From the IMG/VR virus record IMGVR_UViG_3300029925_000012, positions 1-24,362 of that record: a stretch of 24,362 nt of DNA; one strand, written 5' to 3'. Numbering within the stretch: position 1 is the first letter of the stretch; each line of letters starts with the position of its first letter. This document shows positions 3,001 to 23,744 of the stretch, piece after piece. The notes below the pieces were generated by a model. The model had not been told where the DNA came from. It did not search any database and saw only the letters and a list, made by a program, of their open reading frames with translations. This DNA is from a virus (lineage: Duplodnaviria > Caudoviricetes). A program made the translations under genes and the position numbers.

Positions 3001-4664
3001 AATACGCCATCTAGTTCCGCTGTCAAGGTTTCCTGATCTATACTCGCCACAAGATCTTCAGCCGCTTGACTAAAAGACTTATCCCCTTCTTTTATTTTTA
3101 TGTCAGCGGCCATTGCAGCATAACCCTGCTGCCCGAGAATTACTTCAGCGTATCTCGTACCATCTATCCTTACATCAGCATCATTTCTGATAGCTTCGCT
3201 GATGTCTTCTTCCACCCCAAGAGCACGAAAAGTTTCTTCAATTCCTTCTGGACGTTGGTTCGCGAATTCGATCAATTTGTCTACCGGCACGAACACTTCC
3301 TCTACGCCAGCAGCTCTCATATCTTCTGCGGCCATTTCCGCGCCCTTGAAGGGATCACGTGATACCAGTTTACTTTTGGACTTTATATCATGCAGACTAT
3401 CCATCGCCGCTTTAGTTTGTCTAGCTTTCGCCAGAGTGTCCGTAGTTACGCTCGTGGCAGTGCCAACGCCGCCACCCAAGAAAGCGCCAGCTGCGAAAGC
3501 CTCGATCATCTGTCTAGTCAGTTCATCTACGTCAACCTCGGTATCAGTAGCAGAAGCAGCAGCAGTTTCGCTGATTGCTTCTTGTACCGCCTCAGTCACA
3601 CCTTCCAGCGTTAATCCCTTGGCTCCTTCTTTGGCGGATCTCGCCATGATATTAGTAGCCGTCAGTTTCAACGCTGTCTCTGCCGCCTCCTGCCCGAAAG
3701 CTCTAACAAGAGCACTCCCTGCTCTACCGGGTAACGCACTATCTAAAACCCCGATCAACGCTCCAGCCCCGAATGCTACGCCGGGAGCTTCTGTCGTAGG
3801 GCTTCTCTCCTTAATGGCTTGTTGCGTTTCCCCAACGCCGAGGATGAAAGAAGGTATGAATACCCCTAAAGTGCCACCGACCAAAGTTCCGATAGGTCCT
3901 GCGACCAAAGTACCAGCGGCGGCTCCGGTAAGACCACCAGCTAGTGAAGGGGCCATTAGCGGGATCTGTTCCCCGGCGGTCTGTTTCATCCAGCTGAAGA
4001 AATCTCCAGCCGTTTCTATTTTAAGAAATTCCTGTTTACCCGGGCCGGTGATCTCCGCCAAATTTGCAAGCGCTCCTGCCTCCCCCAACTCCTCCAGCGT
4101 CTCGATACCTGTGGCCTCGCCCACTGCTTCTACGAAACGCCAGTTCAGAGATTGTAGCAGATCGACGCCGTTGGCAAAACTCGCGGTAAACGTAAGTTGC
4201 TTAGCCGCCCTCTCCATACCCACCAAATTGGGAACATCATCAGATCCTAAAATAGGTACAAGGTCGTCAGTAGTTAGAAATCTCTTCGTCACCGGAGCTG
4301 TGTCAGGCACATTTTGAATGTCGTTCTGTGTAGCCTGTTTCCGAAAACCTTCTCTGTTCTCTTCTCCTATAACAGTGAGAGGTAGCCCCAGTTTATCAGC
4401 TAGATTTTTATCTGACGCTGCTTGATCTGGGTTTATCTCTGACGCTCTCACAGCGTTCTGTGTAAGGACGGAAGAAGGCGGACGCAAGAAAGACCCAACC
4501 TCTTCCACGGGGACCAAATCTTCGGCGTCGAGCAGTCCGCCAGTTATAGTGGGCGCTGCGGCTTCCTCTACTGGCGTTTCAAACGGAACTACAGGAGCGG
4601 TTATATCTTTCTCTTCTTCAAGCGGTTGAAGTTCACCTTGCGTTAAGCGCGGTACATTAGCCAT
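3..4664 (-). CDS. Large internal virion/DNA ejection protein (T7 gp16 position), 3'-truncated by the window edge, at least ~1550 aa
   Basis: Absent from the ORF track. ATG at 4664 directly follows the upstream TAA (TAAATG). My translation begins MANVPRLTQGELQPLEEEKD, contains a Gly-zipper hydrophobic segment (SLAGGLTGAAAGTLVAGPIGTLVGGTLGVFIPSFILG) and an EGVTEAVQE motif, and is still open at the left edge (VEELTEALLEMAGMAGAITG). The long Ser-rich plus-strand shadow ORFs over 133-4317 share one frame, consistent with a single ORF. I did not translate every codon. Confidence 0.85.
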   Translation of the reverse strand, partial: MANVPRLTQGELQPLEEEKDITAPVVPFETPVEEAAAPTITGGLLDAEDLVPVEEVGSFLRPPSSVLTQNAVRASEINPDQAASDKNLADKLGLPLTVIGEENREGFRKQATQNDIQNVPDTAPVTKRFLTTDDLVPILGSDDVPNLVGMERAAKQLTFTASFANGVDLLQSLNWRFVEAVGEATGIETLEELGEAGALANLAEITGPGKQEFLKIETAGDFFSWMKQTAGEQIPLMAPSLAGGLTGAAAGTLVAGPIGTLVGGTLGVFIPSFILGVGETQQAIKERSPTTEAPGVAFGAGALIGVLDSALPGRAGSALVRAFGQEAAETALKLTATNIMARSAKEGAKGLTLEGVTEAVQEAISETAAASATDTEVDVDELTRQMIEAFAAGAFLGGGVGTATSVTTDTLAKARQTKAAMDSLHDIKSKSKLVSRDPFKGAEMAAEDMRAAGVEEVFVPVDKLIEFANQRPEGIEETFRALGVEEDISEAIRNDADVRIDGTRYAEVILGQQGYAAMAADIKIKEGDKSFSQAAEDLVASIDQETLTAELDGVFASDEIKTQVEELLGKLTPGNAAEALDSAPRGVTAVLMDLINKVGERKVSVEADVREGRIAQLDEELSTIDRDIETAQEDLDTRVEEGRATVRAERRVERLTEQREQRLDEQEQLAFEERQIVQATTPEGQAVAEEIKAKKVARKPIKVKAKKLQDLGVKITTEAVRATRTAFRAGLKAGEALTTQKTDISKAINKLPLPVAAKKQLTDRISRVKTEAQLKKTAAAVQSKAAVLVEREQRKQIKSAVKKQLKDTAPRSVGGKLVGKFDADTQQVLDAARDIMSLSPEVAQERLDAALTEELPSPAKLFERKLLAMAANDPNLGITDAENVLFDIVAIKAGGAAAALERASGRKNARNTAVAEAREAVTQGEPTKALKTTGFFNRLKSRAKDVNAAFASAHNGWDEVLDIIFNKRGADAESLIKSLRITDEIQDMKGLAIQWEQKTTEAGLTAFDLDGYSQLMSKHIDDAKRTDFGVFENSRGDEVRLEYSRAEIRKLWMESQDPTIADVITDDKGMAFSEAMLRVLFDTLTPQDQAYVDAQLAIYRSIYPTINATYRRVYGVNLPFNQFYSPIQRDKGDTPTDGSADSFGADRILTDEMEFRRQLPRSIKTRSDNLVPLLRRSDVGAMHRYLHDMAWFTKTTDRVLFMKSVFDSQPLRKDIKAQHGNAMVRTIDSFLQDFGTGYPAKGVVGEQVFGTFNRLFSSSVLSLKATIGTKQLVSWFAMAENVPTKDFISAHADFFKSPARAKQIVKFLYQNSPTLQQRGSSLDFELAKVGSLDEPVFRWKKQEKWEKIKFAFIHYGDRVPIYAGGWAVYKHAISQGKSKTEAIKVFQDALNSTQQSVDIDKLSSLQRSGPMGRTLTMFMTARFALLRGELRAFRQFRRGKISTRQFGKRMAMYHFIMPMFIQYIASGFEWEPDRQLIAATLGQLNSLVILGDILMYSATEAFTDRKGVAIKEIPMFDVLAEMAKGVNDAFEADDVEELTEALLEMAGMAGAITG
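3351..3366. promoter_or_regulatory. 16-bp palindromic site, copy 1 (GGGATCACGTGATACC), intragenic
   Basis: 15/16 match to GGTATCACGTGATACC. Encodes V-S-R-D-P in the large ejection protein. Confidence 0.7.
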
Positions 4665-6440
4665 TTATTTTCCCCTTCTAGAAATAGCTAGATCATACTG
4701 TCTTCTGACGAACAGCGGTGTAGGTACGCGGCCAGCAGAAAGGATCTGTCTGGTGATAAGATCCACGTCCTGAGAAGCAATACCTGTGTCAGCCGCGATT
4801 ATATTAATCACTTCTTCGTATTCATCCGTGTCAACTACATTCTCTATCTCGAAAGGACTTTCAGGATCATCGGGACGACCACGTTTTGCCAGTGTCTCAA
4901 ATAGCCTTTCATTAGCTCCGAAGAATTCAGCGCTTTCCAGATACAATCCTCGAACGATATTCCGGTAGTTGTTGTCTGTCAGCTTCTCCCCCTCAGAGGA
5001 AAGTTTTTCAATCTCCAAAGACAAAGCTGTTTTGATGTTAGCTTCTTCTTCCGCGTTGAGACTAAAACTTTTCAACATATCTTTAGTTGCTGTAATAGCT
5101 CTACTCAGACGAGCACCTTTATTCACTTCTTTTCTGTCGGATGCTTCTTCTCTGGCCTTAGCATTCCTCATACCTATCTGTAGAGATTGAAACATGTTTC
5201 TGTCGGGCACGTCTAGCCCAGAGACGTAAGGAGGCCGATTGAGATCAAGCTCAACGAATTTTGCTGGATCTTCAGTTTGCATATCGAACACTTGAGCACG
5301 AACACCTCTATCAGACACGTGAGGTCTTCCAGAAGCTTTAAATTGCGCGATCCTTCTAAGTTGCTCTAACATGCCGGGGGTCTGCGACACAGCCTCAAAT
5401 TCTTCAGGTGTCAATGTATTAATTTCGCTCCCTGCATTTATCCTTCCTATGGCGTTCACACGGAGATTTTTATCAGCCTCGCGTTCTTGTCTTGCTAGGT
5501 CTGCATTGTGCGCCCGAATTCTAGCAACAACACTATCGCGCACCGCCCCATCTTGTATCTGCCGAGCAGCAGCCAATCTATCCGCGTCAGTAGAAAAAGG
5601 TATAGCTACGATCGCGTCGAATTCCCCCTGAGCTTCTTCTCTAACACCTTCCCGCATGATGCTTTTTTCCAGATCTCCTCTTGCACGTGGAACGATCTGT
5701 GATTTATTTCTGGCGTAATAAACGGCTGCTTCAGAAGCCCTTCCCGTGTCTAGCAAATTTTTGACAGCTAGCGAATGAGTAGCCGTTAAGTTAGACTGAA
5801 CTATATCCGCCCGCGCTTGTTCATCAGTGATACCTTGTCTATCGGCCATGTTCAATGACAGCGCGATGATCTGCCCTATTCTGGATGCGTTGTTCGGGTC
5901 GAAAGGGTTTGATACGACATCGTCAGTCAGAGCGGTCAATGCAGCTGCATCAGAAGCATCTTCAGCCGTTCTAGTTTCTCTCACTAAATACGAAGCGTGT
6001 CCATTATCGAATTCAAGAAGAAGCGCATCTGACCGAGTTTTGAAATGATCTTTCACGCGCTGGCTAGCTATACCCTCCCCCAGTTTAGAAACTCGTTTTC
6101 TCAGGTCGACACGTTGAGCGTCCGCCGCGTCTAAAGCAGACTGAGCTTTCACTTCTCTATACCCTGTTATCCCTTGGTCTGGGTTTCCAAACTGCGCATC
6201 ATGCGACATGCGACGTGCCTGAGTAGCCAGATCCTGCGCCTCTCTATCTTCATCCTTTAGCTGTTGTTCCCTACCGAATGCGCTTAAGTCTGCCGCCGCA
6301 GCTCCTAGAACTCGACCCGTATCTACGAGCGCTCGTGCGGAAACCCCGAAGTCTACAGGAGCATTCACCCGGGGCAGTGTTGTTCTCTGCACTCCTAGTT
6401 GACTTGCCTGAACTCTGTTGATGCCCGGGACTTTTGCCAT
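4665..6440 (-). CDS. Internal virion/ejection protein (T7 gp15 position)
   Basis: 591 aa, helical and Ala/Arg/Glu-rich, lying between the gp14-like and gp16-like genes. Confidence 0.7.
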   Translation of the reverse strand: MAKVPGINRVQASQLGVQRTTLPRVNAPVDFGVSARALVDTGRVLGAAAADLSAFGREQQLKDEDREAQDLATQARRMSHDAQFGNPDQGITGYREVKAQSALDAADAQRVDLRKRVSKLGEGIASQRVKDHFKTRSDALLLEFDNGHASYLVRETRTAEDASDAAALTALTDDVVSNPFDPNNASRIGQIIALSLNMADRQGITDEQARADIVQSNLTATHSLAVKNLLDTGRASEAAVYYARNKSQIVPRARGDLEKSIMREGVREEAQGEFDAIVAIPFSTDADRLAAARQIQDGAVRDSVVARIRAHNADLARQEREADKNLRVNAIGRINAGSEINTLTPEEFEAVSQTPGMLEQLRRIAQFKASGRPHVSDRGVRAQVFDMQTEDPAKFVELDLNRPPYVSGLDVPDRNMFQSLQIGMRNAKAREEASDRKEVNKGARLSRAITATKDMLKSFSLNAEEEANIKTALSLEIEKLSSEGEKLTDNNYRNIVRGLYLESAEFFGANERLFETLAKRGRPDDPESPFEIENVVDTDEYEEVINIIAADTGIASQDVDLITRQILSAGRVPTPLFVRRQYDLAISRRGK

Positions 6441-6448
6441 TATTTGTC

Positions 6449-7000
6449 CTAACTAAATGCTAAGCTTCCGCTCTGGAACCTAAATGATCGAGCTAAAGTG
6501 CTGCCTGTCGTAAGCAACGTGCCGAACGCGGATGTCCCGAGAGATTGAGCTTCTGAAACTTCTCTCCTAGTTTGAAGTCCGGTCAGCCCTATGTCAGCCT
6601 GAATATTGTCGCTTTCAATAGCGAGGTTGCGTTTACGTAGATCGCTTTCGTGCTGCGAAACAAGTTTTCTGAATTCGATCTCTCCAGCCAGCTCCGTCGT
6701 AATATCAGCTGCGCTACCGACGTCAACAAGTTGGCCAAGCGCGGCTTGTGCAACTCTTATTTCGCCTTCTCTTGTCGCGCCCTCCCGAGCAATAAGCTGT
6801 TGCCTAATTTGCTCAGTTCGCTTTTCAGCTGTTATGTCTTGTTCTATCGCTGTTTGCTGGTTTCGAAGCACAGCCTGTCTAAATTCTCCTTCATCCCTCG
6901 CCGCTTGTTTATCTACCTGAGCTTGCTGCCTTTGTCCTATAAAAGAGACAACACCGCTGACCGCTGATAAGGCGAACCCCGCTATCGCTATACTACACAT
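6449..7000 (-). CDS. Internal virion protein, T7 gp14-like ejection protein
   Basis: 183 aa. Met-Cys hydrophobic N-terminus (MCSIAIAGFALSAVSG), Gln/Ala-rich coiled coil, G-x-x-x-D-V-G-S-A motif. Follows the gp13-like gene. Confidence 0.8.
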   Translation of the reverse strand: MCSIAIAGFALSAVSGVVSFIGQRQQAQVDKQAARDEGEFRQAVLRNQQTAIEQDITAEKRTEQIRQQLIAREGATREGEIRVAQAALGQLVDVGSAADITTELAGEIEFRKLVSQHESDLRKRNLAIESDNIQADIGLTGLQTRREVSEAQSLGTSAFGTLLTTGSTLARSFRFQSGSLAFS

Positions 7001-7470
7001 TACGTTGTCCCTCTCATAAAAAACTTGTGAAAGTCTAGTTTCTCGGGGCCGTAGGGAGCTTCAGGTTCTAACTCGAACCCTAGCCATTTAAGCCACCTAA
7101 TCGCCTGAGTATTTCTCGCGTCTACATAATTCTCTAAAATATCAAATTCTTTTTTTAAACTCGATACGTACTTCACGTTGCCTCTTAGAAAAGCCCTAAA
7201 ATGAACAGGTAACTCTTCTGACCCAAGCAGCCAAGGAAACCCCCTGAAACTCAGCACTGAAGATTGCGCCGCCCCATACATACATACAACTCGGCCATCG
7301 GCTAAAGCAGCCCACGGATGGATCGTGTATTCTAGAGACGCTTCTAGCGCTTGTAAAGGAGTTTTGTGCCAGCCCGCCCAAGCCTCCTCAACATCTTCTC
7401 GCCTCATAGTTTCTGCCAACTGTAGTGCGTGCTCTTTCGTAGCTGGTACTATCTCGTATTTAGTCATCAC
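7000..7470 (-). CDS. GNAT-fold acetyltransferase-like protein (T7 gp13/internal virion protein A-like)
   Basis: Motifs MRREDVEEAWA, PWLLGS and LENYVDARNTQAIRWLKWLGF. Lies immediately after tail tubular B. ATG at 7467 (TGATG overlap) is the likely start. Confidence 0.88.
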   Translation of the reverse strand: MMTKYEIVPATKEHALQLAETMRREDVEEAWAGWHKTPLQALEASLEYTIHPWAALADGRVVCMYGAAQSSVLSFRGFPWLLGSEELPVHFRAFLRGNVKYVSSLKKEFDILENYVDARNTQAIRWLKWLGFELEPEAPYGPEKLDFHKFFMRGTT

Positions 7471-10400
7471 GGGTCCTCCGCCGTAATTTCAGGTATGATT
7501 GCAAGAATAGTCATAGGCAGAGGATCTCGCTGCCGCAGGAGCAATCGCCCGTTAGAATTCCAGTCAGGTTTTAATGTTATTTTTTTATCCTCTGTTAGTA
7601 GCTGCGTAGGCTGGCCTAGTTTTTCGAATTCTCTCTGTTTCATCTCCACGAGTTTGTCTGATGAAGGACCTACTAACAGACCCCGAGACTTTTTAAATCT
7701 GACCGTAACTTCTGATATTTTAGTCTTCTTGCCTTGAATGGTTCCTTCGGGTGCTTCTATATTTAACGTTTCTATGTCAGAAATATACTGGAGACCGACA
7801 TGCACCCTACTAGCTTTTCGAGGTAACTGTATCTTCCCGGCAGCTACGGTAAGCCCCCTTACTACGTTTCCATCGGACAACACCACTACCTCTTCCCCTT
7901 CTAAGTGATTTAACGCAAACACGAATGTGACAGTCTTGCGCACGTTACCCGCAGACACATAAACTTTAAACTCTGATCCATCTTCGGCGTTATACGCGCT
8001 ACCGCCATTCGTATACGTAGTGAAACCGGTTGTATTAACGGTGGCATCTCCGACAGTATTGAGTTCAAAAGTATCTGCGGTAGAGTTCGCTACCTTGAAT
8101 ATTGTGTCGTTCGCTTCTATCATTCCTTCTACGCCGTGTAGCGCAATTATATCTCCGTCAACTAAGCCATGGCCCGTTATACTCACTACGCCCGGATTAG
8201 CTTGCGTTATCGCGATTATCAACCTTTGGCCTTCAGTTTCCACCAGAGCAAAGGTATTAGCCGTCTTATCGGCTACAAAATATCTACGTCCATTTAACTG
8301 GTCGGGATTAGTGGCGTTATCGAAACTGTCGAATTGAGTTTTCCATTTTATGCCTTCGATATCTACTTCGTCCCCGTCAGAGAAACCGTGACTTGGTGCG
8401 GTGACCACTACCGGGTCAGCAGATGTAGCGCCAGTAATAACTACAGGATTGTCGAAAGTTAATCCACTGTCGACAAAAAAGGCATCTTCTACTCCTAAAA
8501 ATCTACGGCTAGCGGTCCTCTCTATAAACATCACAGTATTGCCGTTTACGCTACGCTCTACCACAAAGTAAGCCGCGTCTCCTGCCTCAGCTATAGACGG
8601 CCTGATAGCGGTAGCCCATTTAAATTCGCCCAAAGTATCCCACGTAGTCCAAGCAAGCACTTCTTGGCTCTCGTTAAATGTCATAGTGGCCACTGTACCA
8701 TCGGACCTGACGATATGAACTACCGGATCGGGAGATCGAGTAAACCCCCAAGATATCGCGGTAGCTTCTTCAAATATGTGGGGAGCTAGAAGATTAAGAT
8801 CTGTTCCGTCGTACCCGTCTACCCTTAATTGATAACCTAACGTGCGAACATTAGTATTGTTTTCCTGCACATAAAGTACGGTTTTTCCTATCACTATGGG
8901 TTGCATGTGGTTGGCCCCCCAATATGTTTGTGGTTCTTGCTTCAGGGTCTCAGCAGCAAAACCTGAGTTATCCCCGGAATTAACTCGCCACTCTGATCCA
9001 TCCGTGAGTATAACCAAATCTCGCCCGGGAACATAATGTCTTATTTGATTAACCCGTCTACCGCTAAGAGTTGCACGGATGCTGTCGTCCGCTTGTATAG
9101 GACGAGACTTATTAAAGTTATTTTGGTTACCTGTTTGAGAATAATCAGAAGTGTCTGGTAGATTTAACGATCCTCCGAATACTCGACGTTGTTGGTAGTA
9201 CCCGACAGCGGCAGGAAATTCTCCCGCAATGCGGAAAGGATTACGTGCTGTAGGAGGCTGTATGCTAAGCTCCGTTAAAGTTTCACTGACAGTATTGTCC
9301 GTGTAGGTGAGTTCACTCGTTTCGGCCAAGAAACCGAATTCTCCACTACCGCTCTTAGCCCTGTAGACTGTGTACCTGAAGGTGTCAGCTACCGCGTTCC
9401 ACGTAATAGTGTTATCGGGGATGATAGCCCCCGTAGGAGCTGCCAAAGTACCGGTCCCCTTAAACGTAGCAAACGAATTACCACCAGTAGTTTCTGGCGT
9501 ATACGACGTCCCGTCTTCCCCATTCAAGGTAAAAGTACTAGCTCCCGTATCAGTGATAATAAATCGACGCCCCACTAATTCAGTCATCTCGGTCATAGCG
9601 GTAATTTCTATTTCATCCCCCGTAGCAAGTCCATGAGGTGAAGCAGTAGTTACCGATACTGGATTAGCCGCCGTAGCTGAACTAATGGCCATAGCCGCAG
9701 AAGAAAGAGCAGATAAACTCTCTTCAAAAGTTTCGTTCTTAATAGCAGTGACTTTGTATTTCCAGTATATATCCTCATCTGTCACGCCAGCTATAGCGGT
9801 TAAACCTGTGGGCCTAGCAATATCTGGCTCAAAAGCAGGTTCAGCTATAGTCCAAGCGTTATGATCTGTCCTAGAGATTTCTCGTATGCCGTAAGTAGTA
9901 TGAGTTATAGTAAGCACGTCGGCGGACTGGGTCCATTTAAGTTGATCTAAGTCAGCTTGCGCGAATGGAGTAGCCAGTTCAAACACTTTACCGACGTCGC
10001 CGCCAGAAGTATAAGCGGTAAAATCCGAGCCATCTATGTCGGTGCCGTCGTATGGGCTAGTCAATTCAAACGCATTAGTTGTCTTATTGGCCACCACAAA
10101 CCATCTACCGTTTATCTCAATCATGCCTCCAACATCGGATATAAAAACATCATCGCCGTTACTATAACCGTGGGCTGTAGCTGTTACAGTTACTGGATCA
10201 GCTATCGTGGCACCCGATATGGATTTCTCAGTCTCAAGAACTTGGGCATCGTTCCTGATAACGCGCATGTATTGATTACCAAATTCAAGCACGTATGTAT
10301 CTACCGACTTAAATTGAAAATCTATCAACACCGGGCGGTTACTATGGTCTTTTACCGGAGCTATAAACCGAAGACCTTCTCGATTGCTAGCGCCCCCGTG

Positions 10401-10523
10401 AGCATGTATTTTGATATTACGCGCTGTTCTCAACGCTACGGCGTACGCAGCAGTGTCCACTCTTCCGTATAACGAAGGACCTATCTCCCCCTTAGCAAAG
10501 GACGGTTGAATAAGTGTGGCCAT
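7467..10523 (-). CDS. Tail tubular protein B / nozzle (T7 gp12-like) with four inserted E1-FCCH-like beta-barrel repeats
   Basis: N-terminal QPSFAKGEIGPSLYGRVD, internal FPAAVGYYQQRRVFGG and QEVLAWTTWD, and C-terminal RQRDPLPMTILAI are typical nozzle motifs. Four IxxxTxAxPxxVxxxxHGxxxGD repeats. Confidence 0.9.
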   Translation of the reverse strand: MATLIQPSFAKGEIGPSLYGRVDTAAYAVALRTARNIKIHAHGGASNREGLRFIAPVKDHSNRPVLIDFQFKSVDTYVLEFGNQYMRVIRNDAQVLETEKSISGATIADPVTVTATAHGYSNGDDVFISDVGGMIEINGRWFVVANKTTNAFELTSPYDGTDIDGSDFTAYTSGGDVGKVFELATPFAQADLDQLKWTQSADVLTITHTTYGIREISRTDHNAWTIAEPAFEPDIARPTGLTAIAGVTDEDIYWKYKVTAIKNETFEESLSALSSAAMAISSATAANPVSVTTASPHGLATGDEIEITAMTEMTELVGRRFIITDTGASTFTLNGEDGTSYTPETTGGNSFATFKGTGTLAAPTGAIIPDNTITWNAVADTFRYTVYRAKSGSGEFGFLAETSELTYTDNTVSETLTELSIQPPTARNPFRIAGEFPAAVGYYQQRRVFGGSLNLPDTSDYSQTGNQNNFNKSRPIQADDSIRATLSGRRVNQIRHYVPGRDLVILTDGSEWRVNSGDNSGFAAETLKQEPQTYWGANHMQPIVIGKTVLYVQENNTNVRTLGYQLRVDGYDGTDLNLLAPHIFEEATAISWGFTRSPDPVVHIVRSDGTVATMTFNESQEVLAWTTWDTLGEFKWATAIRPSIAEAGDAAYFVVERSVNGNTVMFIERTASRRFLGVEDAFFVDSGLTFDNPVVITGATSADPVVVTAPSHGFSDGDEVDIEGIKWKTQFDSFDNATNPDQLNGRRYFVADKTANTFALVETEGQRLIIAITQANPGVVSITGHGLVDGDIIALHGVEGMIEANDTIFKVANSTADTFELNTVGDATVNTTGFTTYTNGGSAYNAEDGSEFKVYVSAGNVRKTVTFVFALNHLEGEEVVVLSDGNVVRGLTVAAGKIQLPRKASRVHVGLQYISDIETLNIEAPEGTIQGKKTKISEVTVRFKKSRGLLVGPSSDKLVEMKQREFEKLGQPTQLLTEDKKITLKPDWNSNGRLLLRQRDPLPMTILAIIPEITAEDP

Positions 10524-11129: not shown

Positions 11130-11137
11130 GTCTTGCC

Positions 11138-11171
11138 CTCAAACGAGATGAAGCGGTATCACGTGATACCA
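11138..11171. repeat. Left arm of a 34-bp inverted repeat (partner 14051-14084), containing the perfect palindrome GGTATCACGTGATACC at 11155-11170
   Basis: ctcaaacgagatgaagcggtatcacgtgatacca versus the reverse complement of 14051-14084, ctcatacgagatgaagcggtatcacgtgatgcca: 32/34 identical. Intergenic. Confidence 0.93.
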
Positions 11172-11185
11172 CCCCAAGATTAAGT

Positions 11186-11677: not shown

Positions 11678-11705
11678 TATTTTTCCCCTAGATAGGATGA
11701 GAAGT

Positions 11706-11729: not shown

Positions 11730-11737
11730 AGATTATC

Positions 11738-12211: not shown

Positions 12212-12234
12212 TTTACGGTCCTTTCATTCACCGA

Positions 12235-14369: not shown

Positions 14370-14383
14370 TCTCTTTCTCCTTC

Positions 14384-14713: not shown

Positions 14714-14714
14714 C

Positions 14715-15975: not shown

Positions 15976-15984
15976 TTTAATTCC

Positions 15985-17658
15985 TTACTGTCTATTGATT
16001 TGGTCTATCGCTGCCGAAACTGGCGTATTCTCGTCTAGATTAACTTGGCCCGCGCTAGCTGCTGCCCTAGCTAATTGTTCGGACAACTCTACACCCGAGG
16101 CTATCTGGGCTTGCTGTGCTTCTGCGTCACGACTCGCAGCTACGTCATCATCGCTCGTTACAAGTTCAGGCGGAACACCAGTTAGCTCAGCGAATTTCTT
16201 ATGAGCTGCGTCACCGTTGAATTTCTTACCATCGGACAAACCGGACGATACGAGACCTGCGGAAAACTGAGCATATCTTTCAATAGGCCGAGTATCAACA
16301 GCCCTCTGTGCTAACGCCAGAGATGACACATAGTTCACCTTAAGAGGTTCTCCCGCTATCTCTTGCGGTGGAGGAGGAACCAACCCACGGCGAACCATCT
16401 GATTAAAGGTACGAGAAATCAATTGATCGAGAAATTCTTCTTGAACACTTTCTAACGCTGGCCCTAATTGCAATAGTCTTTCTGCGTCTACCTTATTCAA
16501 CTCTAATTCGTTCCGAGGTTGAATGCCTTCCATATCCGTAATAGCCAAAAATAGATCTACAAAAAATCCTCTATCAATACGGCGTTCTACTTTTTCTATT
16601 TTGGCTTCTAATTGTTGCAGAGGTAGGTTGACATTATAGATAGGCTCCAGTTTATTCCGTGATGGATCTCCGTCATAGAGAGTTAGGCCACCGGGTAGAG
16701 AACTAACAGGAGACTGCCTCAGAGAAGCTGGCCCTGTCAATGGGGGGTTCACCATCTTATCTAGTCCTTGCGCCCCTCTCTTCTCCATGATTTGGAGTTG
16801 CTTGACGTCACCCAGAGTAGTCATGCCCGGGCAGTCTGTAGCGTAGGTATCTTCACCCGTCACAGCCCACCTAGGAACATACACAGGAAAATCGTCAAAC
16901 CCACTTTGGCTTAAGAACATATCTTTATTCGTATTACCGGCCTCGTACTTTGCCGACCTAAACTTCTTAAATGTGGCAAGTCTGTTCTCGGGTCTAAAGT
17001 CGTCATTGGGTTCTATGATATGCGTTACCGGAAACATTGCAGATAAGTTATTCTGATCAAGCATTTTTGTAGCCGATAAGCTTAACTTATCTTTCCCGAA
17101 TTCTAGCGCCATCTGTTCGACAGACATCATGTACTCGCGAATAAGAGTATTAGCGATTAATCTATCATCCGTACCTATCATGTACGCCCCAACAGTATGC
17201 GTATAAAACCTAGCTACATCTCTTTCATCGTCTACGTGTGTCATGCACCCAGTGCCGAAAAGAAGAAATTCTTTTAGCATAACCGGTGCCATGTTGTATA
17301 GATTACTCGCGTTAAATATACCGCGCATAATCATTTCATTTTGTTTTAACCAGATCTTCACCGGTCTGAATTCAGTTAGTTCTGGATCAGCCACAGCTAG
17401 TTCAAACCAAGGGCGAGCCGGAGACATAGTTCCCGCGAATAGCCCAGATGTAGCAGTATTGAGAGCCTGTGTGCCCTTGCTGTTTATGATGAACTGGTGA
17501 CGTTTCTCACCTCTGTCTACGTCAGTCACCTCAAAGCGCCCACGACGGGGACTTACGTTCTGAGATAGATCTTTGTAGTGAGAAATGAAACTACTTCGTT
17601 TAAGTCTTAACTGACCTTTGCGCCGTTCAAAGTAATCTCTTAATACATGCTCTGACAT
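15985..17658 (-). CDS. Portal protein / head-to-tail connector (T7 gp8/Bbp21-like)
   Basis: 557 aa. Motifs GTMSPARPWF, VPRWAVTGEDTYATDCPGM, LGDVKQLQ, ERLLQLGPALE and VNYVSSLALAQ. Confidence 0.94.
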   Translation of the reverse strand: MSEHVLRDYFERRKGQLRLKRSSFISHYKDLSQNVSPRRGRFEVTDVDRGEKRHQFIINSKGTQALNTATSGLFAGTMSPARPWFELAVADPELTEFRPVKIWLKQNEMIMRGIFNASNLYNMAPVMLKEFLLFGTGCMTHVDDERDVARFYTHTVGAYMIGTDDRLIANTLIREYMMSVEQMALEFGKDKLSLSATKMLDQNNLSAMFPVTHIIEPNDDFRPENRLATFKKFRSAKYEAGNTNKDMFLSQSGFDDFPVYVPRWAVTGEDTYATDCPGMTTLGDVKQLQIMEKRGAQGLDKMVNPPLTGPASLRQSPVSSLPGGLTLYDGDPSRNKLEPIYNVNLPLQQLEAKIEKVERRIDRGFFVDLFLAITDMEGIQPRNELELNKVDAERLLQLGPALESVQEEFLDQLISRTFNQMVRRGLVPPPPQEIAGEPLKVNYVSSLALAQRAVDTRPIERYAQFSAGLVSSGLSDGKKFNGDAAHKKFAELTGVPPELVTSDDDVAASRDAEAQQAQIASGVELSEQLARAAASAGQVNLDENTPVSAAIDQINRQ

Positions 17659-17661
17659 TTT

Positions 17662-17910
17662 TTATTGTCCTAGTAGAGTTTTCTTGGCGCGTGACGGCGC
17701 TTCAGTAATAAGACCTAGCGCACCTCCTGAGGTCAATATAGTACTTGGCCGTCCCCCCGCAGCCAATCTACTTACTGATGCTCTAGCTTGCCTCGACGCT
17801 ACCACTGAAGGATCTTGCGCTGTTGGCGCTGCTGGTGTAGGAGGTGGAGCCTCTGGAGCCGCAGGAGCAGGAGGAGGTTTAGGAACTGAAGGTTTACTGA
17901 AAACACACAC
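17662..17910 (-). CDS. Small Pro-rich virion protein upstream of portal (T7 gp6.7/gp7.3-like slot)
   Basis: 82 aa with an AGGAG RBS. MCVFSKP N-terminus, Pro/Ala tract, STILT motif and KKTLLG C-terminus. Confidence 0.8.
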   Translation of the reverse strand: MCVFSKPSVPKPPPAPAAPEAPPPTPAAPTAQDPSVVASRQARASVSRLAAGGRPSTILTSGGALGLITEAPSRAKKTLLGQ

Positions 17911-17924
17911 TATTTAATCTCCTT

Positions 17925-19511
17925 CTAGAAATCTGCTTCAAGCGGATCATAGTCATGCTCTGCTTGTCTGGGTTGCGTATTCATTGAGTTTTCCGTCATT
18001 ATCGATACTTCAGCGGCAAAAGTAAGAGCTAACGCATCCCCGATATCAGGGCTTTCTACTCCTCGTTCTACCATATCTTTTTTAGTCTCTAGATGTATTT
18101 TGTTTCCGGTAAGTGTATATCCATATTCTCTTTGCGTCAAGTCAGCCTTAAGCTCCAGACCACACGACTGATTAAGAGCAGGTAAACAAAGGCGAGGAAG
18201 CTTATCTCTCAAGTTACCCCACATCTCGTCTGACTTGTACCGATATGTCTTAGTATCTGTAGGCCCAGAGCCGAACTGAACCTCTGTCACATTATACCCA
18301 AGATCCATTAATTGGTCTACCACGCCGCCACCTACGCCCCCACCATCTACAAATAGAGCCGCGTAGTCCATCCCCAGCGCCCTGAACGCCCTAACAGTCT
18401 CAATGACCTTGCCTACTAGCTGCACAGTATTCAAGCCCTTGTACCGGCCTCTACCTATGACTGGTGCCCATGAACGGCAATCATTGCCGATGCGAGGGTA
18501 GATTACACTATCGTTATCCCCAAAGCGGGCCACGTCAACGCCTATAATCAACGGAGCAAAAGGATCATTTGCTATCTCCCGACGCTGAGCGTCCTCTACT
18601 AAGTCTGTCGCAATGAACTGGGTAGAACCAGCTGACGGGAACAAACCTCGTACACGTACTTTGAAGAAATCACTGTCCTCGCCATAATCTTCGAGCCACG
18701 CTTTGATGCGTTTCTTATTAGTGATGTTGACGTCTCGGCTGTCGATGCACCGAACTCTATAGCGATGACGAAATCTGCCAGCGCATTCTTCATAGAAGCG
18801 GCCAGAGTTACGGGTCCCGTTGCCAAAATCGAACACCATTGGTTCCCCGTCAGTAGTCCCACCTTCCCGAACTTCGAAGATTTTATCCGGCACCGCTGAT
18901 GCTTCATCGAAAACATAGAACGAAGTGGCCGACGCGGCATGCTGACCCGCGAAAGCTTCTGAATTCTCTTCCCTACAGGTCTGTCCATCACAGCGCCATT
19001 CCTCTTTAAAATCCTTGTGTGTAAGGTTCATGGCACCCCGGCCAGAGTTATACGTAAACCAATGCTCAGTCAGAGACATCTTATGCCACTTACCCAACTC
19101 CGCCCATGTTTTGGTCTTCAACTGTTCAGCTGTATTTGCTGTTACAGTCCCTTTAGACATCGGACGGGTATCCATAATAAACTTGATGATCCAAGCAACC
19201 AACGTAGACTTACCGATACCGTGGCCGCTCACTGTAGCGTAGTTAAGAGGATCTACTGCGTTAGCCCCATCAAAACCGTTAGCGCGAATATCTTCGCCCC
19301 ATTCATCTAAAAACTTACAGGCCCATACATCAGGACCGTACTTACTGCCCGGGAACCGTTCTTTGTAAGGAGACTGGAGCTCGATCATCTGAATAGGTTG
19401 ATATGTGTCCCACGGCCAATTGAACATGACGTAGCCCAACGGATCATCAAAGAACTGCGCTAGTTCATCCGCTAGTATTTCATCTCCAGTTCTGGTATCA
19501 CGTGATCCCAT
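17925..19511 (-). CDS. terL: Terminase large subunit
   Basis: Walker A SGHGIGKS, Walker B YVFDEAS, nuclease motifs IGVDVARFGDNDSV and SPDIGDALALTF. Start most likely 19511 (TAATG overlap); the ORF track extends to 19526. Confidence 0.96.
   Translation of the reverse strand: MGSRDTRTGDEILADELAQFFDDPLGYVMFNWPWDTYQPIQMIELQSPYKERFPGSKYGPDVWACKFLDEWGEDIRANGFDGANAVDPLNYATVSGHGIGKSTLVAWIIKFIMDTRPMSKGTVTANTAEQLKTKTWAELGKWHKMSLTEHWFTYNSGRGAMNLTHKDFKEEWRCDGQTCREENSEAFAGQHAASATSFYVFDEASAVPDKIFEVREGGTTDGEPMVFDFGNGTRNSGRFYEECAGRFRHRYRVRCIDSRDVNITNKKRIKAWLEDYGEDSDFFKVRVRGLFPSAGSTQFIATDLVEDAQRREIANDPFAPLIIGVDVARFGDNDSVIYPRIGNDCRSWAPVIGRGRYKGLNTVQLVGKVIETVRAFRALGMDYAALFVDGGGVGGGVVDQLMDLGYNVTEVQFGSGPTDTKTYRYKSDEMWGNLRDKLPRLCLPALNQSCGLELKADLTQREYGYTLTGNKIHLETKKDMVERGVESPDIGDALALTFAAEVSIMTENSMNTQPRQAEHDYDPLEADF
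19494..19509. promoter_or_regulatory. 16-bp palindromic site, copy 4 (GGTATCACGTGATCCC), overlapping the terL start
   Basis: 15/16 match to consensus. The minus strand reads ATG GGA TCA CGT GAT ACC (M-G-S-R-D-T). Confidence 0.7.
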
Positions 19512-22363
19512 TAGTTTGGCGTCCATGAGGAACCTACCATTCTGATATTGCTAACTGTGTTGTCCCATGTTGCCGTAATGTCTGTAGCTGTCTCCGCCGT
19601 AGTAATGTTACGAACTGCGCTCGTATGGCGTATCTCAAAAGCTACATCATAGTTCTCTGCGGCGTTTGTCCATGTAGCGCCTTCTGCTGTGGTAGTGTGG
19701 CCTACTGTAGCAATCGCTCCACCATTTGCGGCGATATCCAGTGTCATGATTTCACTCGTTCCGTCACCCGGTGCAGCATTATCCGTGCCATTGACTGTGG
19801 TGTTGGCGTCATCTACCAGATAGACGCCTATGCCGAGCCGGGATGTACTTGCTGTAGGAGTGACTACGATATCATTGAGACTGCCCCCCGAGTGAGTATA
19901 TTGCCAGTGCGCCGTATGTGAGAAACTTGACGCTGTAGCTGCGCCGGATACTGCTGACGCAGAAGCAGCATCAACAGTTATCGTGCTGATAGTGTGGGCC
20001 GTACCTCCTCGCGATACGGGCGCTAGAATAATCTCACCCGCTGCGACTGAGCCAAACGCTGCATCAGCATCGAAGGTGTACGAAGTAGCGTTAGCGTTAC
20101 TGAAGAAAGACCCAAGGAAGGTAATAAAGGCGCTAGTAACTACTGTAAAGTTCCAAGTTGTCTTATCAGAAATACCAGCAAAAGATTTACTAGATAGTGT
20201 TCCGTCAATAGCTGTAGCATCTACTTGTACGTAAACACTAACTCCATTAGTAAAAGTAGACGTCATATGACATATAAATTTATTACCAGATAACTCAATT
20301 TGGCCAGCGCCTGTACCTTGTTCAGTGGCGACGTTAAATGCTTCGATTAACACATCACCAGACGCATTAAACACCGATACATTACCTGTGCCGAATGCTA
20401 TTGGCTGATCGAATGTTGCTGTAGGAGCTACCCCTACAGCGATATCGGTTCCATTGTCAGCGGGGGATAAAGTGACAATCAGTGGAGCAGGTCGCTTAGT
20501 CTCATCCAGTGTGCCAGCATGGCCCGGGATATTCGTATCAAAGACGGCAACCTCTAGTGCTCCCTCTGTTCCGCTTGTGGGGGTAAAGAACGTTACTAAT
20601 TCTGCTCCATCATTCACGTAGAAGCCGGGAGTTGGTTCTCCATCACCGGGAAACTTATCTCCATAGTCTCCATCGGGAGTAAGAGCAGCCCCACTAATCC
20701 CCATTATTACGTTACTAATTCCAGTTGATATAGAACTAAAGGACACAGCATCAGCTAAGTTATTATAAACTAGGTTACCTTCAGTAGAAGTCTCATCCAG
20801 ATCTATCTTCATACCATACGAAAGAGTAGCGCCCTCTTGCAATACGCATGTATTAAACCCTATAAGACTACCTTCTATCCGATCTAACGTTAGGCCGTGG
20901 GTGTCATCTACGATCACCATGTTACCCTCAACTACCCAACCGTTCATTGACCCACCAGTTAGATTAGAGAATATACCTTCTGACCTTCCCGGTAAGAACA
21001 GGGAATCGACGTGGCTATCAATAATCCTGTTCATTGTAACCCGGCCACCATCCCACGTACCAGTATTCTGTAGAATGTCTAGGAATTGAGTGGCATCTGT
21101 ATGAGGATTTCTAAAATCCTTTGAATTGGATATAGATCCTTCGAATACATTCTGGTCTAGTATGACTGTGGAATCGCCATATGTTTCCCTGTTAATCTGC
21201 ACACTGTCAGTATAATTATTTTTAAAGTAGTTGCCCCGGATTATCAAATCGCCAAGACCAGCCAATCCAACGCCATTACTCAAATCATGAACATAGTTAT
21301 CTTGGAAAGTAATTCTAGTGCTGACTACACCATGCTGTATAGTGACAGCGTTCACGTTGTTTATCAGGGTTGTTGCTCTATACAACGTAGCACTCGCTAC
21401 ATCCACTACGGCAGCGCCGCCTAATGGGTCGGTTATGGCCTCGCCTGATGTAAATTCTTCCCCAGTATCGTTAATGTCCGGGTCTGCCCCATCAAGAATA
21501 AGAGTGCCTGTGGTGCCGTTATCTATAACCCCGACAATCGCTACAGACTTACCAGACGTTGCACCTGTCACATTTTGCCCGACAGTGAACGCTCCAGTCT
21601 CTCCAGTATAATCAAGTCTTGGTCGATAGTCTCCATCGGGATCAAGAGCACCAAACTGAGAGGTAAATTCACAACCCTGTATGACCATGTCTGTAACAGT
21701 GTCTAGGAAGATACCTCGTTTTCCATCTGCATTTGGGGGATTGAATTTTATGCGAGATATCGGTACACCACCGACTACTGCTATCTGACCATCAATTGTG
21801 AAGTTTGTAACAGTATCAATCAATATCTCTTCGTCAATTATTACTAGAGCATCGGGATACGCTGCGATAGTAAATACACTGCTGAAAACTCTAGTCAGAT
21901 AATCTGCATCAACTGGAGTAATTGTAACTCCATCGCGTATACGTAATGTCTTACCTGAAAGAGTGGCTGTCGCTATAGCTAGAACGGTTCTATACTCTGC
22001 GTCACTCGCCACACTGTATTCATTTGCATCAGCTGTTATAACTGCGTCGAACGTTTCCGTACTTGTATCTGCAAAGGTAGCAGTACAGTTGAGTGTGGTA
22101 TTACTGGTGAAGGTATTTCCCACACTTGTTCTAATGGTTGCGCCAGACGTCTCAAAATCACTAGCAGAACCCAAAGAAGCGCCATCAATCACAATGGATG
22201 TAACTGTTCCTGATGTCGGAACCACAGTGAAGGCCCCCGCTTGGTCAGCTGATAATAGCCCATACCCAAAAGGCTGATTGGCTATCTGCTCAGTAACAAT
22301 AATTATCGGCTTCCCACTCAGTATAGTGGTAACCATAAGCGCTCGATTATTTATCAACGCCAT
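19511..22363 (-). CDS. Large putative fibre/spike or adhesin: right-handed parallel beta-helix, SbsA/Big_5-like Ig domain and C-terminal beta-rich domain
   Basis: Beta-helix repeats (ITFQDNYVHD, IIRGNYFKN, ILDQNVFEG, HTDATQF, VVEGNMVI) and an Ig-like segment (LSPADNGTDIAVGVAPTATFDQPI...FAGISDKTTWNFTV). Start most likely 22363 (MALINNR, AAGGGG RBS). Confidence 0.75.
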   Translation of the reverse strand: MALINNRALMVTTILSGKPIIIVTEQIANQPFGYGLLSADQAGAFTVVPTSGTVTSIVIDGASLGSASDFETSGATIRTSVGNTFTSNTTLNCTATFADTSTETFDAVITADANEYSVASDAEYRTVLAIATATLSGKTLRIRDGVTITPVDADYLTRVFSSVFTIAAYPDALVIIDEEILIDTVTNFTIDGQIAVVGGVPISRIKFNPPNADGKRGIFLDTVTDMVIQGCEFTSQFGALDPDGDYRPRLDYTGETGAFTVGQNVTGATSGKSVAIVGVIDNGTTGTLILDGADPDINDTGEEFTSGEAITDPLGGAAVVDVASATLYRATTLINNVNAVTIQHGVVSTRITFQDNYVHDLSNGVGLAGLGDLIIRGNYFKNNYTDSVQINRETYGDSTVILDQNVFEGSISNSKDFRNPHTDATQFLDILQNTGTWDGGRVTMNRIIDSHVDSLFLPGRSEGIFSNLTGGSMNGWVVEGNMVIVDDTHGLTLDRIEGSLIGFNTCVLQEGATLSYGMKIDLDETSTEGNLVYNNLADAVSFSSISTGISNVIMGISGAALTPDGDYGDKFPGDGEPTPGFYVNDGAELVTFFTPTSGTEGALEVAVFDTNIPGHAGTLDETKRPAPLIVTLSPADNGTDIAVGVAPTATFDQPIAFGTGNVSVFNASGDVLIEAFNVATEQGTGAGQIELSGNKFICHMTSTFTNGVSVYVQVDATAIDGTLSSKSFAGISDKTTWNFTVVTSAFITFLGSFFSNANATSYTFDADAAFGSVAAGEIILAPVSRGGTAHTISTITVDAASASAVSGAATASSFSHTAHWQYTHSGGSLNDIVVTPTASTSRLGIGVYLVDDANTTVNGTDNAAPGDGTSEIMTLDIAANGGAIATVGHTTTAEGATWTNAAENYDVAFEIRHTSAVRNITTAETATDITATWDNTVSNIRMVGSSWTPN

Positions 22364-22367
22364 ATTA

Positions 22368-22862
22368 TTACCCCTTAAGCACGCCAACTCTTATCGTAAG
22401 ATCCGACGTAGATGCATAGGTCGGAGTACCCCGGGACACAATAGCTGCATATAAAGTATTCCCACTGGGCAACACAAACGGAATGGCCAGTTGTAAAGCT
22501 TGCCCCACGGAATTATCGCTAAACGCCGCATACGTTGTGACCTGTGCTACGCCTACGATGTTCACCAGATCAAGATCATCCACGTCAAATGCTGCATTCA
22601 AAGTGAACGTCGTACTAGTTGGGTCCGTATCAAAGAACACCACATCCAGAGCGGCAGACTGCGCACCAAGGTCAGTAATAATAACAGATTGGATCAAACC
22701 ACCAACTGGCCCTCTCTGGTCTGCGTCGCCTTCTACAGCCGCTACTAAACTGATCTTATTCGCTATCAAGTCTCCAGACGCATAAAGAGCTGCCTGAACA
22801 ACAGCTGTCTCCTCTATGTAATGCTGAAAGAACGAGTTCGCCTTACTAACTGCGCTAGCCAT
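22368..22862 (-). CDS. Hypothetical phage structural protein (beta-sandwich-like)
   Basis: 164 aa with an AGGAG RBS. Pattern YASGDLI...GGLIQSVIITD...VFFDTDP...LYAAIVSRGTPTY. Confidence 0.72.
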   Translation of the reverse strand: MASAVSKANSFFQHYIEETAVVQAALYASGDLIANKISLVAAVEGDADQRGPVGGLIQSVIITDLGAQSAALDVVFFDTDPTSTTFTLNAAFDVDDLDLVNIVGVAQVTTYAAFSDNSVGQALQLAIPFVLPSGNTLYAAIVSRGTPTYASTSDLTIRVGVLKG

Positions 22863-22875
22863 TTAATCTCTCCTA

Positions 22876-22929
22876 TTATTTACCGGGCCGAGGTTTACGT
22901 TTGATTGGTTTACCGGGATGTTTAGGCAT
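22876..22929 (-). CDS. 17-aa basic Pro/Lys-rich micropeptide MPKHPGKPIKRKPRPGK
   Basis: AGGAGA RBS just upstream, double stop TAA TAG. It fills the gap between terS and the next gene's RBS. Confidence 0.65.
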   Translation of the reverse strand: MPKHPGKPIKRKPRPGK

Positions 22930-22939
22930 TTATCTTCTC

Positions 22940-23509
22940 CTAATGAAGTGTTTCAGCGTTATCCTCTTTACCGAGCCTCTTACGGCCAGCATGAAGTCTC
23001 TCAATCAATGAAGCCCCACTAACCTCCAACTTGTCATCAAAGATCCCCAAGACCCTAGCCAGTGCATTCAATGCAGTAAACGCATCACCAGTTTTGATCT
23101 TAAACTTCTTAACTCTTATAGCCCCCGGTCCCCGTCCCTCAGTATACGTATCTACACTAAGCTCATTAATCAATGCCAGATCTTCATCAGGTGCAGCCGT
23201 AAAGTCCCAAGCTAGTGTTCCATCCGACTGGATCACCTTATACTTAGCTAACACACTACCGCTATCTGCAATCCGCATAAGACGTTTTATTACCCAGTCC
23301 TCAGATAGTTCCATCTTCTCGGCTTGCTCAGCTCGACGCTGCGCTATAAAAGCTATCACCTCTGGGCGATTGAACACGATATCAGCCCTATCCTTGGACG
23401 TATTCTCACTATACCCAGCAGTTCGCATCGCATCGGCTTTAACACCGCCATTAGTGAGAAAGGCGTGCACCGCTATCCTATGCTTGTCTCTGAGTACAAT
23501 CTTGGCCAT
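22940..23509 (-). CDS. terS: Terminase small subunit
   Basis: N-terminal HTH-like segment (ADAMRTAGYSENTS...RPEVIAFI), LSEDWVIKRLMRIA, and C-terminal KIKTGDAFTALNALARVLGIF. First gene of the late operon. Confidence 0.88.
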   Translation of the reverse strand: MAKIVLRDKHRIAVHAFLTNGGVKADAMRTAGYSENTSKDRADIVFNRPEVIAFIAQRRAEQAEKMELSEDWVIKRLMRIADSGSVLAKYKVIQSDGTLAWDFTAAPDEDLALINELSVDTYTEGRGPGAIRVKKFKIKTGDAFTALNALARVLGIFDDKLEVSGASLIERLHAGRKRLGKEDNAETLH

Positions 23510-23690: not shown

Positions 23691-23728
23691 TCCTTGCGGA
23701 ACAGGCTCAATCTGATCAAGATCTGGTT

Positions 23729-23744
23729 GGTATCACGTGATGCC
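23729..23744. promoter_or_regulatory. 16-bp palindromic site, copy 5 (GGTATCACGTGATGCC), in the control region
   Basis: 15/16 match to consensus, about 85 bp upstream of the putative late -35. Confidence 0.7.

Follow-up and report, generated by a model that had tools for sequence, protein, structure and literature searches.

A dispersed 16-bp palindrome and its candidate DUF3102-like reader in a clade of uncultured podophages

The DNA under investigation, hereafter referred to as the window, is the whole stretch of 24,362 nucleotides. It carries the late operon of a podophage, which encodes terS, a 958-aa protein, terL, the portal, a Bbp19-like protein, the scaffold, the GP7 capsid, Bbp16, tail A, tail B, and internal virion proteins. 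Five copies of a 16-bp palindrome are found in it. The relevant features are the following.

3..23509, minus strand: podophage late operon, which hosts the sites
3351..3366, no strand: copy 1, with a mismatch at position 3, within the gene for a 1554-aa internal virion protein, read as L-V-S-R-D-P
11155..11170, no strand: copy 2, a perfect match between genes, with the tail A start 25 nt further on
11171..11185, no strand: spacer separating copy 2 from a 163-aa gene
14052..14067, no strand: copy 3, within the Bbp19-like gene at its 3' end, where it reads A-V-S-R-D-A; the scaffold start follows after 17 nt
19494..19509, no strand: copy 4, at the TerL N-terminus, read as M-G-S-R-D-T, overlapping the likely start codon
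23510..24362, no strand: non-coding end of the fragment
23729..23744, no strand: copy 5, 219 nt upstream of terS, between the late arm and the (missing) early arm

The original prediction placed palindromes at 3351, 11155 (perfect), 14052, 19494, and 23729, and all five were recovered, as compared to a mean of 0.06 in dinucleotide shuffles of the window; five copies were reached in none of 100 such shuffles. No further sequence in the window lies within four mismatches of the palindrome, and each of its five TCACGTGA octamers is part of a copy. As had been stated, the imperfect copies deviate solely at position 3/14, and the three genic copies are read in one common frame. The positions claimed for copies 2 to 4 at or just before the tail A, scaffold, and TerL starts were likewise confirmed on the minus strand, and copy 5, originally assigned to the late-promoter region, lies ahead of terS. 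The TerL start is probably the ATG at 19511, given a TAATG overlap with the upstream stop and relatives that begin with M-A-S-R-D-T, and copy 4 would thus overlap the start codon.

Several of these positions recur in related records. The region of the tail A start holds a site in nine of the 26 records compared, the window included, and the TerL N-terminus does so in 13 of 25. The offset of copy 3 is identical in G188, L257, and L259, and in L381 and L254 it is occupied by a variant. Common flanks occur between some sites: copies 2 and 3 share a contiguous 12-bp flank in inverted orientation, positions 11138-11154, on the side of copy 2 away from the 11171..11185 spacer, are an inverted near-repeat of the copy 3 flank, and in L381 and G209 the common stretches extend to 19-20 bp. 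For the window alone, the evenness of spacing corresponds to p=0.078.

The palindrome serves as a marker of one clade of uncultured BPP-1/APSE-like podophages, whose records contain 5–30 copies each and whose cultured TerL relatives are at most 47% identical. Indeed, the scan of related phages revealed the motif clade-wide: five records contain 30, 17, 26, 12, and 14 sites, as opposed to 0 for a reversed-pattern control, and the 110 exact-match loci in IMG/VR are concentrated in a few contigs. G164, G208, and the G168 group were considered as independent lineages, an assignment that was rejected when TerL and marker searches placed them in the same family. Spacing is more even than in a junction-preserving shuffle in eight of 13 records (p<0.05) and is not significantly so in the other five. 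Although only ∼10% of the DNA is intergenic, 127 of 224 sites (57%) are located there; the 24 divergent junctions accommodate 20 sites, of the 95 co-directional sites 57 have the next start no more than 40 nt away, and 55 of the 224 are mid-gene copies in late genes. A sigma-70-like promoter is touched by just one of 126 intergenic sites, as compared to 167 of 3000 controls.

The codons TCA CGT GAT/GAG are employed in 60 of 89 SRD/SRE tripeptides, whereas 0.84 would be expected. This codon usage indicates that selection acts on the DNA and that the peptide is not the target. The two halves of the site vary independently of each other, as dyads, and at least six lineage versions of the palindrome are observed. 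In L381, the variant GGTTACACGTGTAACC occupies the same positions as the motif and rewrites the TerL N-terminus to M-A-T-R-V-T, thereby changing SRD to TRV. This L381 version, GGTTAC, is found exactly in only five viral loci; the corresponding letters are GGTATC for G188 and G002, GGTGTG for G213, and GGTCTC for G209.

The candidate for the protein that reads these sites is a Lys/Ala-rich, DUF3102-like helical protein with 687 representatives. In a de novo scan, the palindrome family ranked first among the repeats in all 14 records with the reader, five of which had supplied its first profile, and in none of six capsid relatives without it. Note that presence versus absence of the reader corresponds to one branch on the TerL tree, and thus any clade-specific gene would correlate with the motif. 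When loci were retrieved by means of the reader protein, 21 of 23 carried at least two palindrome copies, and the remaining two display the variant GGTGTGACGTCACACC together with an altered reader helix. G208 is chimeric, with every site in the 15-kb part that contains the reader; the remaining 54 kb are free of sites. Of 17 reader genes, 10 have a site no more than 100 bp upstream, and 10 have one downstream.

The reader was predicted to form a homodimer with a score of 0.63 (best control, 0.00), a contact agreement between runs of at least 76%, and pLDDT values of at least 72; the mark applied is attained by 20 of 30 solved pairs and by one of 23 single chains. The search for relatives yielded little: none with a solved structure was identified by sequence, Foldseek gave no match in the PDB or BFVD at E≤0.001, and the best VIA-align Z values, 6.9 and 6.4, represent generic helical matches and hairpins and do not show a new fold. 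A language-model feature match of 0.94 connects the reader to clusters in which 29-43% of the members contain DUF3102, and hhalign aligned it to DUF3102 with a probability of 45.8% over 26 columns of the F..W...N...SY.T..K helix pair. Weak matches to Pfam DUF3102 (PF11300) were limited to two of 150 members (best E 0.0015), short of the curated cut-off. The reader differs from that family in being a stand-alone protein of 200-390 aa with a Lys/Ala-rich N-terminus and no detected methylase domain. Its tree is poorly resolved and permits no mapping of site variants to residues, and the protein is absent from cultured phages (50,697 records).

As originally noted, no cognate protein is visible in the window itself, and the candidate reader gene is absent from it. 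The two nearest relatives carry this gene on the early arm, which is missing from the fragment: in L381 the gene is divergent and starts ∼700 bp upstream of terS, and in G188 it lies ∼8 kb upstream of terS. On the basis of these two arrangements, the reader gene of the window phage is expected beyond the contig end. The reader profile had no match in three close fragments that also lack the early arm, and no usable extension of the contig past the window end was obtained, with two seawater runs giving small shares only.

Comparison of the records demonstrates that the motif is kept at the DNA level, evenly spread, lineage-specific, and always accompanied by one early-arm protein family. That the phage DUF3102-like protein is the binder of the palindromes is considered quite probable. 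Whether it also coats or organizes the phage chromosome from these docking sites is an evenly balanced question; if it is the binder, coating or organizing is a rather more probable role than repression. In the proposed mechanism, the reader would bind the palindromes as a dimer at regular intervals along the phage chromosome, with a helix-turn-helix-like element of each subunit reading one 8-bp half-site and the N-terminal Lys/Ala-rich helix gripping the DNA that flanks it. The G188 or G002 reader would dock on GGTATCACGTGATACC, and those of L381 and G213 would prefer their own site variants. The C-terminal domain may contribute self-association, and bound sites could therefore be bridged or compacted. 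Such binding would label the genome as self, either while the phage grows lytically or in a carrier state, and the sites flanking the reader gene may set the level of the protein. The original proposal of sites for a dimeric protein agrees with the independent halves, the selection on DNA, and the predicted homodimer. Its notion of a genome-wide phage regulator fits in so far as a phage-encoded, genome-wide binder is concerned, which may or may not act as a repressor.

Repression is the premise of the best-surviving alternative, namely that the reader is a stoperator-like global repressor whose dimers block RNA polymerase genome-wide, thereby controlling timing, sustaining a carrier state, or conferring superinfection immunity, with the lineage variants as immunity groups. 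In the accessible text on Cluster A phages, stoperators are described as 24-34 dispersed, lineage-specific sites (PMC3029335). The gp71/gp69 repressors treated there resemble the present case in that one phage protein serves dozens of dispersed sites with lineage variants, and the copy numbers given above for the podophage records are of this kind. The intergenic and divergent-junction sites suit regulation equally well, and the proximity of co-directional sites to the next start, the sites flanking the reader gene, and an integrase gene in G004 with a site at its start all favor it. The stoperators, however, are asymmetric, transcription-oriented, and associated with lysogeny as far as the consulted part of that report goes (PMC3029335), whereas the podophage sites show symmetry and an integrase is lacking in 11 of 12 records. 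More specifically, a tyrosine integrase was found in one of the 12 records and in none of five near-complete ones, a serine recombinase in none of 12, and ParA in none of 11, several of the records in these counts being incomplete. Control of lysogeny is disfavored by the integrase and serine recombinase counts, and a promoter-operator role by the avoidance of sigma-70-like promoters; in addition, the mid-gene copies in late genes would need clearing in every lytic cycle. Repression of this type is thus regarded as possible, if somewhat unlikely.

A second alternative is that a host protein of the Rhodospirillales type reads the site, and that the phages mimic it in order to recruit or titrate that protein, leaving the phage protein as a passenger or competitor. 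The exact site is present in 14 of 151 Rhodospirillales-order chromosomes, and the reader in none of the 151, so a host protein may read the site too; capsid relatives occur in nine of these genomes. Among the GTDB loci that match the site exactly, about 50 of 120 belong to Rhodospirillales-type alphaproteobacteria, and a class-wide sample contained it in four of 301 genomes. The exact motif accounts for 16 of the 48 GGNNTCACGTGANNCC sites in the 151 genomes, and the next commonest of these host sites are variants tolerated by the phages. On the other hand, most genomes of the order lack a copy, carriers hold one or two in unrelated contexts, and in close sister phages private variants change together with the phage's own protein, as in the rare GGTTAC version. 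No host binder candidate was found. Neither a neighbor gene nor a flank is common to the host sites, or to host and phage sites (6 bp being the longest match), and a looser 12-mer is near chance level in hosts (about four expected per strand). DUF3102 occurs in one of five hosts, away from any site. A terminus-clustered, matS-like role in hosts was rejected, as an IS1595-family transposase, present in several copies, accounts for three of the four sites that cluster in G039, and the other genomes show no common site position. A host reader is accordingly judged improbable.

Decidedly speculative is the combined suggestion that a stand-alone phage protein family uses its private palindrome to cover the phage genome, as a mark of self or a scaffold of the nucleoid, that the variants of sister phages act as lock-and-key pairs, and that Rhodospirillales hosts have placed single copies of the commonest variant in their chromosomes as a tripwire or decoy for the phage protein. 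As an aside to the tripwire reading, the host copies are often situated at gene ends beside toxin-antitoxin, Fic, or holin genes.

It is very unlikely that the repeats act as RNA hairpins, cruciforms, or recombination cores in place of docking a protein. The 16-mer can fold into a 6-bp stem (-6.2 kcal/mol), some sites have the common flanks noted above, and Cluster O repeats mediate deletions according to the accessible text of PMC4351075. Across 238 sites, however, there is no compensation within the stem (171 broken pairs versus 169.7 ± 5.7 with shuffled halves), G-U pairs do not account for 103 of 148 sense-strand departures, the supposed loop shows both conservation and self-complementarity, Rfam gave no match for the palindrome repeat, and no recombinase is clade-wide.

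The least credible reading is that of true parS-like centromere sites, on which a ParB CTPase clamp of phage or host origin would act in partition or in silencing by spreading: despite the common 16-bp length, the TCACGTGA core with its CACGTG center, a correctly reported 12/16 identity to chromosomal parS, and the dispersed ParB-family sites of RK2 (PMC3597684, as far as available), PF02195 (ParB_N, the CTPase domain) is absent from five motif-rich relatives (three complete; the early arm of the window is missing), ParA PF13614 from 11 records (control 14 of 14), hhalign did not match the reader to a six-sequence ParB profile, and all five copies have A4/T13 where, in the part of PMC3597684 consulted, the parS consensus tGTTNCACGTGNAACa has invariant T4/A13. 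Nor are the bacterial-chromosome copies clustered at parB or at the origin: exact sites lie at least 0.3 Mb from parB in G006, G007, G008, G009, G032, and G131, whereas G139 has a canonical parS at 10 kb from parB. The ParB-clamp claim is therefore not supported.

Among known systems, the KorB/OB operators of RK2 are alike in being replicon-wide dispersed palindromes for an element-encoded dimer, but KorB is described in the accessible portions of PMC11790492 and PMC3597684 as carrying a ParB CTPase domain and working with a partner in partition, whereas the candidate reader has no ParB_N match and the phages no ParA. The 17-bp dyads of Cluster O mycobacteriophages are closer: in the text available (PMC4351075), more than 30 sites are distributed in and between the genes of a non-integrating genome, mostly away from promoters, with another sequence and a 3-bp spacer, and no binder or function is assigned there. 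In contrast to Cluster O, a candidate reader is linked here by co-occurrence, flanking sites, and lineage variants, and the site is also present in putative host chromosomes. Neither the exact motif nor the present system was found in the openly accessible article texts searched.

In MatP/matS and Noc/NBS, a sequence-specific dimer on dispersed palindromes organizes a region of the chromosome. To the proposed coating of the phage chromosome these offer a functional analogy only; no relation in sequence or fold was found, and the system described here is phage-encoded and genome-wide.

Repeats of the Cluster O type, described without a binder, are here accompanied by a specific candidate reader and by natural site variants, and the reader belongs to a family that comprises at least 687 clusters and lacks annotation. 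The excess of sites in one bacterial order provides a hint as to the host range of this uncultured clade. If the proposed role is correct, the organizing or marking of the chromosome would constitute a layer of phage biology outside the repressor and ParABS models, and the family would supply orthogonal pairs of a protein and its 16-bp DNA site.

The five copies of a 16-bp palindrome put forward in the original prediction were indeed found, each with one mismatch at most (shuffled sequences gave a mean of 0.06), and a scan of the whole window allowing four mismatches revealed no others. The window is the late arm of a podophage, encoded on the minus strand, with genes for a GP7 capsid, Bbp16/Bbp19-like proteins, the portal and the tail. 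From these gene families we take the phage to be BPP-1/APSE-like. Its TerL is at most 47% identical to those of cultured relatives. The sequencing runs that contain most of the window are subsurface metagenomes from a single study, which is possibly where it comes from. The pertinent features are as follows.

3351, 11155 (perfect), 14052, 19494 and 23729: the five palindromes
11138-11170 and 14052-14084: ~33 bp in common, inverted, with 12 bp of contiguous flank and then one mismatch
14384-15975 (minus): insertion of three short genes (115, 109 and 312 aa) that separates portal from Bbp19; the 312-aa gene alone has a PHROG match (function unknown)
19511-22387 (minus): 958-aa gene between terS and terL, encoding an Ig-like domain and what appear to be beta-helix repeats
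23929-24250: dense differences among contigs of related strains, with one loose end at 24140

The shared flanks at 11138-11170 and 14052-14084 suggest that one site may have been copied or converted from the other; a shorter common flank occurs at the same two places in the related locus L257. The terS-terL interval of relatives contains no insert or other inserts, as opposed to the 958-aa gene. Region 23929-24250 is possibly a genome end or an origin region, and its counterpart upstream of terS in L381, a close relative, contains short tandem repeats. The window is also devoid of thirteen GC-rich 6-bp palindromes (e.g. GGATCC, GGTACC, CTGCAG, GTTAAC), which suggests restriction-site avoidance.

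An exact scan of IMG/VR yielded 110 motif loci concentrated in a few contigs. The five motif-rich records contain 30, 17, 26, 12 and 14 sites at two mismatches or fewer (reversed-pattern control, 0) and have in common genes for the capsid, TerL, DNA polymerase A, a primase-polymerase and a helicase. Over 15 records, with genes called by a custom codon-based script, 127 of 224 sites are intergenic even though coding sequence makes up ~90% of the DNA. A single reading frame accounts for 72 of the 84 in-gene copies. Selection acts on the DNA: 60 of the 89 S-R-D tripeptides in 12 records (S-R-E in G209) employ the motif codons, where codon usage would predict 0.84.

The proposed scan of related phages showed the motif to be a clade feature with lineage variants. 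In a survey of 80 capsid relatives, the window's own motif was observed in six, the three closest (75%) carry the variant GGTTACACGTGTAACC, and L260 apparently has a CAGCTG-centred version; the remaining 70 showed no motif at up to three mismatches over the stretch retrieved. The variant in L381 occupies the positions seen in the window: one ahead of terS, one where TerL starts, one where Bbp19 ends and one preceding tail A. Its TerL N-terminus reads M-A-T-R-V-T rather than M-G-S-R-D-T. Among the records compared, sites are located close to the start of TerL in 13/25, at the Bbp19 end in 7/20, before tail A in 9/26 and before terS in 6/13, totals that include motif-free relatives and near-duplicate records.

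The first five records all encode a Lys/Ala-rich protein of 200-400 aa with a conserved core, a candidate binder of the palindromes that is referred to here as the reader. A profile search provided 687 representatives among 50%-identity clusters. A possible similarity to DUF3102 was seen in a weak Pfam match for 2 of 150 members, in an Atlas feature score of 0.94 against clusters that contain DUF3102, and in a 26-column hhalign match to one DUF3102 protein. The AlphaFold models (pLDDT 92) are all-helical: a long hairpin is followed by two short helices, which may form a helix-turn-helix-like element, then by another long helix and a C-terminal domain of small size. The dimer prediction scored 0.63 (best control 0.00), passing a mark attained by 20 of the 30 solved pairs and by 1 of the 23 single chains. 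Its contacts agree to at least 76% with pLDDT of at least 72, and the interface is formed by the hairpin and the C-terminal domain. The dimer prediction supports a putative dimerization of the reader. Note that four records (G001, G005, G209, G213) encode two reader paralogues, one per side of the early arm, with one dominant site family.

The reader profile matched 16 of 50 viral records. It was found in all ten records of at least 30 kb with five or more sites, five of which built the profile, and in neither the five motif-free capsid relatives of at least 30 kb nor G163; because motif-bearing phages form a single TerL clade (support 99), this contrast amounts to one event. The reader tree is poorly resolved. 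There was no match in G169 (221 kb, 2 sites) or in many short motif-bearing fragments. Of 23 loci fetched by the protein, 11 were new and 21 carry at least two copies; two have GGTGTGACGTCACACC, with the helix SYETARRL replacing SYETVRKL. A de novo search ranked this palindrome family top in 14/14 reader-bearing records and 0/6 relatives lacking the reader. All sites in G208 (L434-L437), a chimeric 70.7-kb IMG/VR contig joining a 54-kb phage with a terminal repeat to 15 kb of the motif clade, lie within the reader-containing part. For 10 of 17 reader genes there is a site in the 100 bp upstream, and for 10 of 17 in the 100 bp downstream. In the TerL tree the window branches together with G188 and L381 (support 100), and in both of these the reader gene is part of the early arm. 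The window lacks this arm, and overlapping contigs gave no extension into it.

The exact site has ~130 occurrences in GTDB, a total close to chance, but Rhodospirillales-type alphaproteobacteria (by record title) make up ~50 of the 120 loci listed. The exact motif accounts for 16 of the 48 GGNNTCACGTGANNCC sites in 151 Rhodospirillales-order genomes (14 genomes) against ~0.13 expected by our own arithmetic, a count that includes G006, picked for having the site, and three copies of one orthologous Thalassospira site. T/G versions occur in 19/151 of these genomes versus 4/301 across the class, capsid relatives in 9/151 and the reader in 0/151. The chromosomal copies have no context in common; many are found immediately after the end of a gene, and several adjoin toxin-antitoxin, Fic or holin genes. 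Host regulators could be using some of them as ordinary operators, and either a host binder or a decoy role is possible. In four non-alphaproteobacterial loci (L159, L161, L174, L203) a TTGAC hexamer precedes the palindrome by 10-13 bp, an arrangement resembling an operator within the promoter of a small autoregulated gene. In L399-L401 (G039), GGTGTCACGTGACACC lies inside the coding sequence of an IS1595-family transposase. In L129, L134, L189 and L132, which come from Thalassospira and from another Rhodospirillales genome, the site falls within, or directly follows, a GTA-type holin gene of a cell-wall-hydrolase cluster, a small protein of which resembles, by eye, one in G005, G188 and L381.

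In 8 of 13 records the sites are spaced more evenly than junction-preserving shuffles would give (p<0.05), and the other five are not significant; the combined p of 4e-11 overstates the evenness because the records are related, and the window alone gives p=0.078. The even spacing and the mid-gene copies point to coverage of the genome and not to the regulation of individual promoters. Contact with a sigma-70-like promoter was seen for only 1 of the 126 intergenic sites, compared with 167 of 3000 in the control, although alphaproteobacterial promoters may escape that consensus. One of 12 records has an integrase. From the spacing, the mid-gene copies and the scarcity of integrases and of sites at promoters, a coating or organizing role for the reader was therefore chosen, with about an even chance of being correct. 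A stoperator-like roadblock is a serious rival, albeit a rather unlikely one; the bias to intergenic DNA and the 20 sites in 24 divergent junctions speak for it, and these junctions are also the longest gaps. Stoperators (PMC3029335) and KorB/OB (PMC11790492) are the nearest working systems, and the phage palindromes depart from defining features of both.

The parS/ParB reading of the original prediction was not borne out. ParB_N was absent from the five motif-rich records and ParA from 11 records, the reader did not match the ParB profile, and the motif departs at positions 4/13 from the parS consensus tGTTNCACGTGNAACa given in PMC3597684. The suggested search for clustering in host chromosomes placed exact copies at least 0.3 Mb from parB in the six genomes checked; in G139 a canonical parS lies 10 kb from parB. 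The palindromes are not parS. Because the half-sites vary independently (171 broken pairs versus 169.7 ± 5.7, 238 sites), they would fit a protein-bound dyad and not a hairpin.

The literature searched contained neither the exact motif nor a description of such a palindrome-reader system. Cluster O mycobacteriophages have 34 dyad sites with no known binder (PMC4351075). The palindromes of this phage clade are a real, clade-wide array of putative protein docking sites, and the reader is a good candidate for the protein that binds them.
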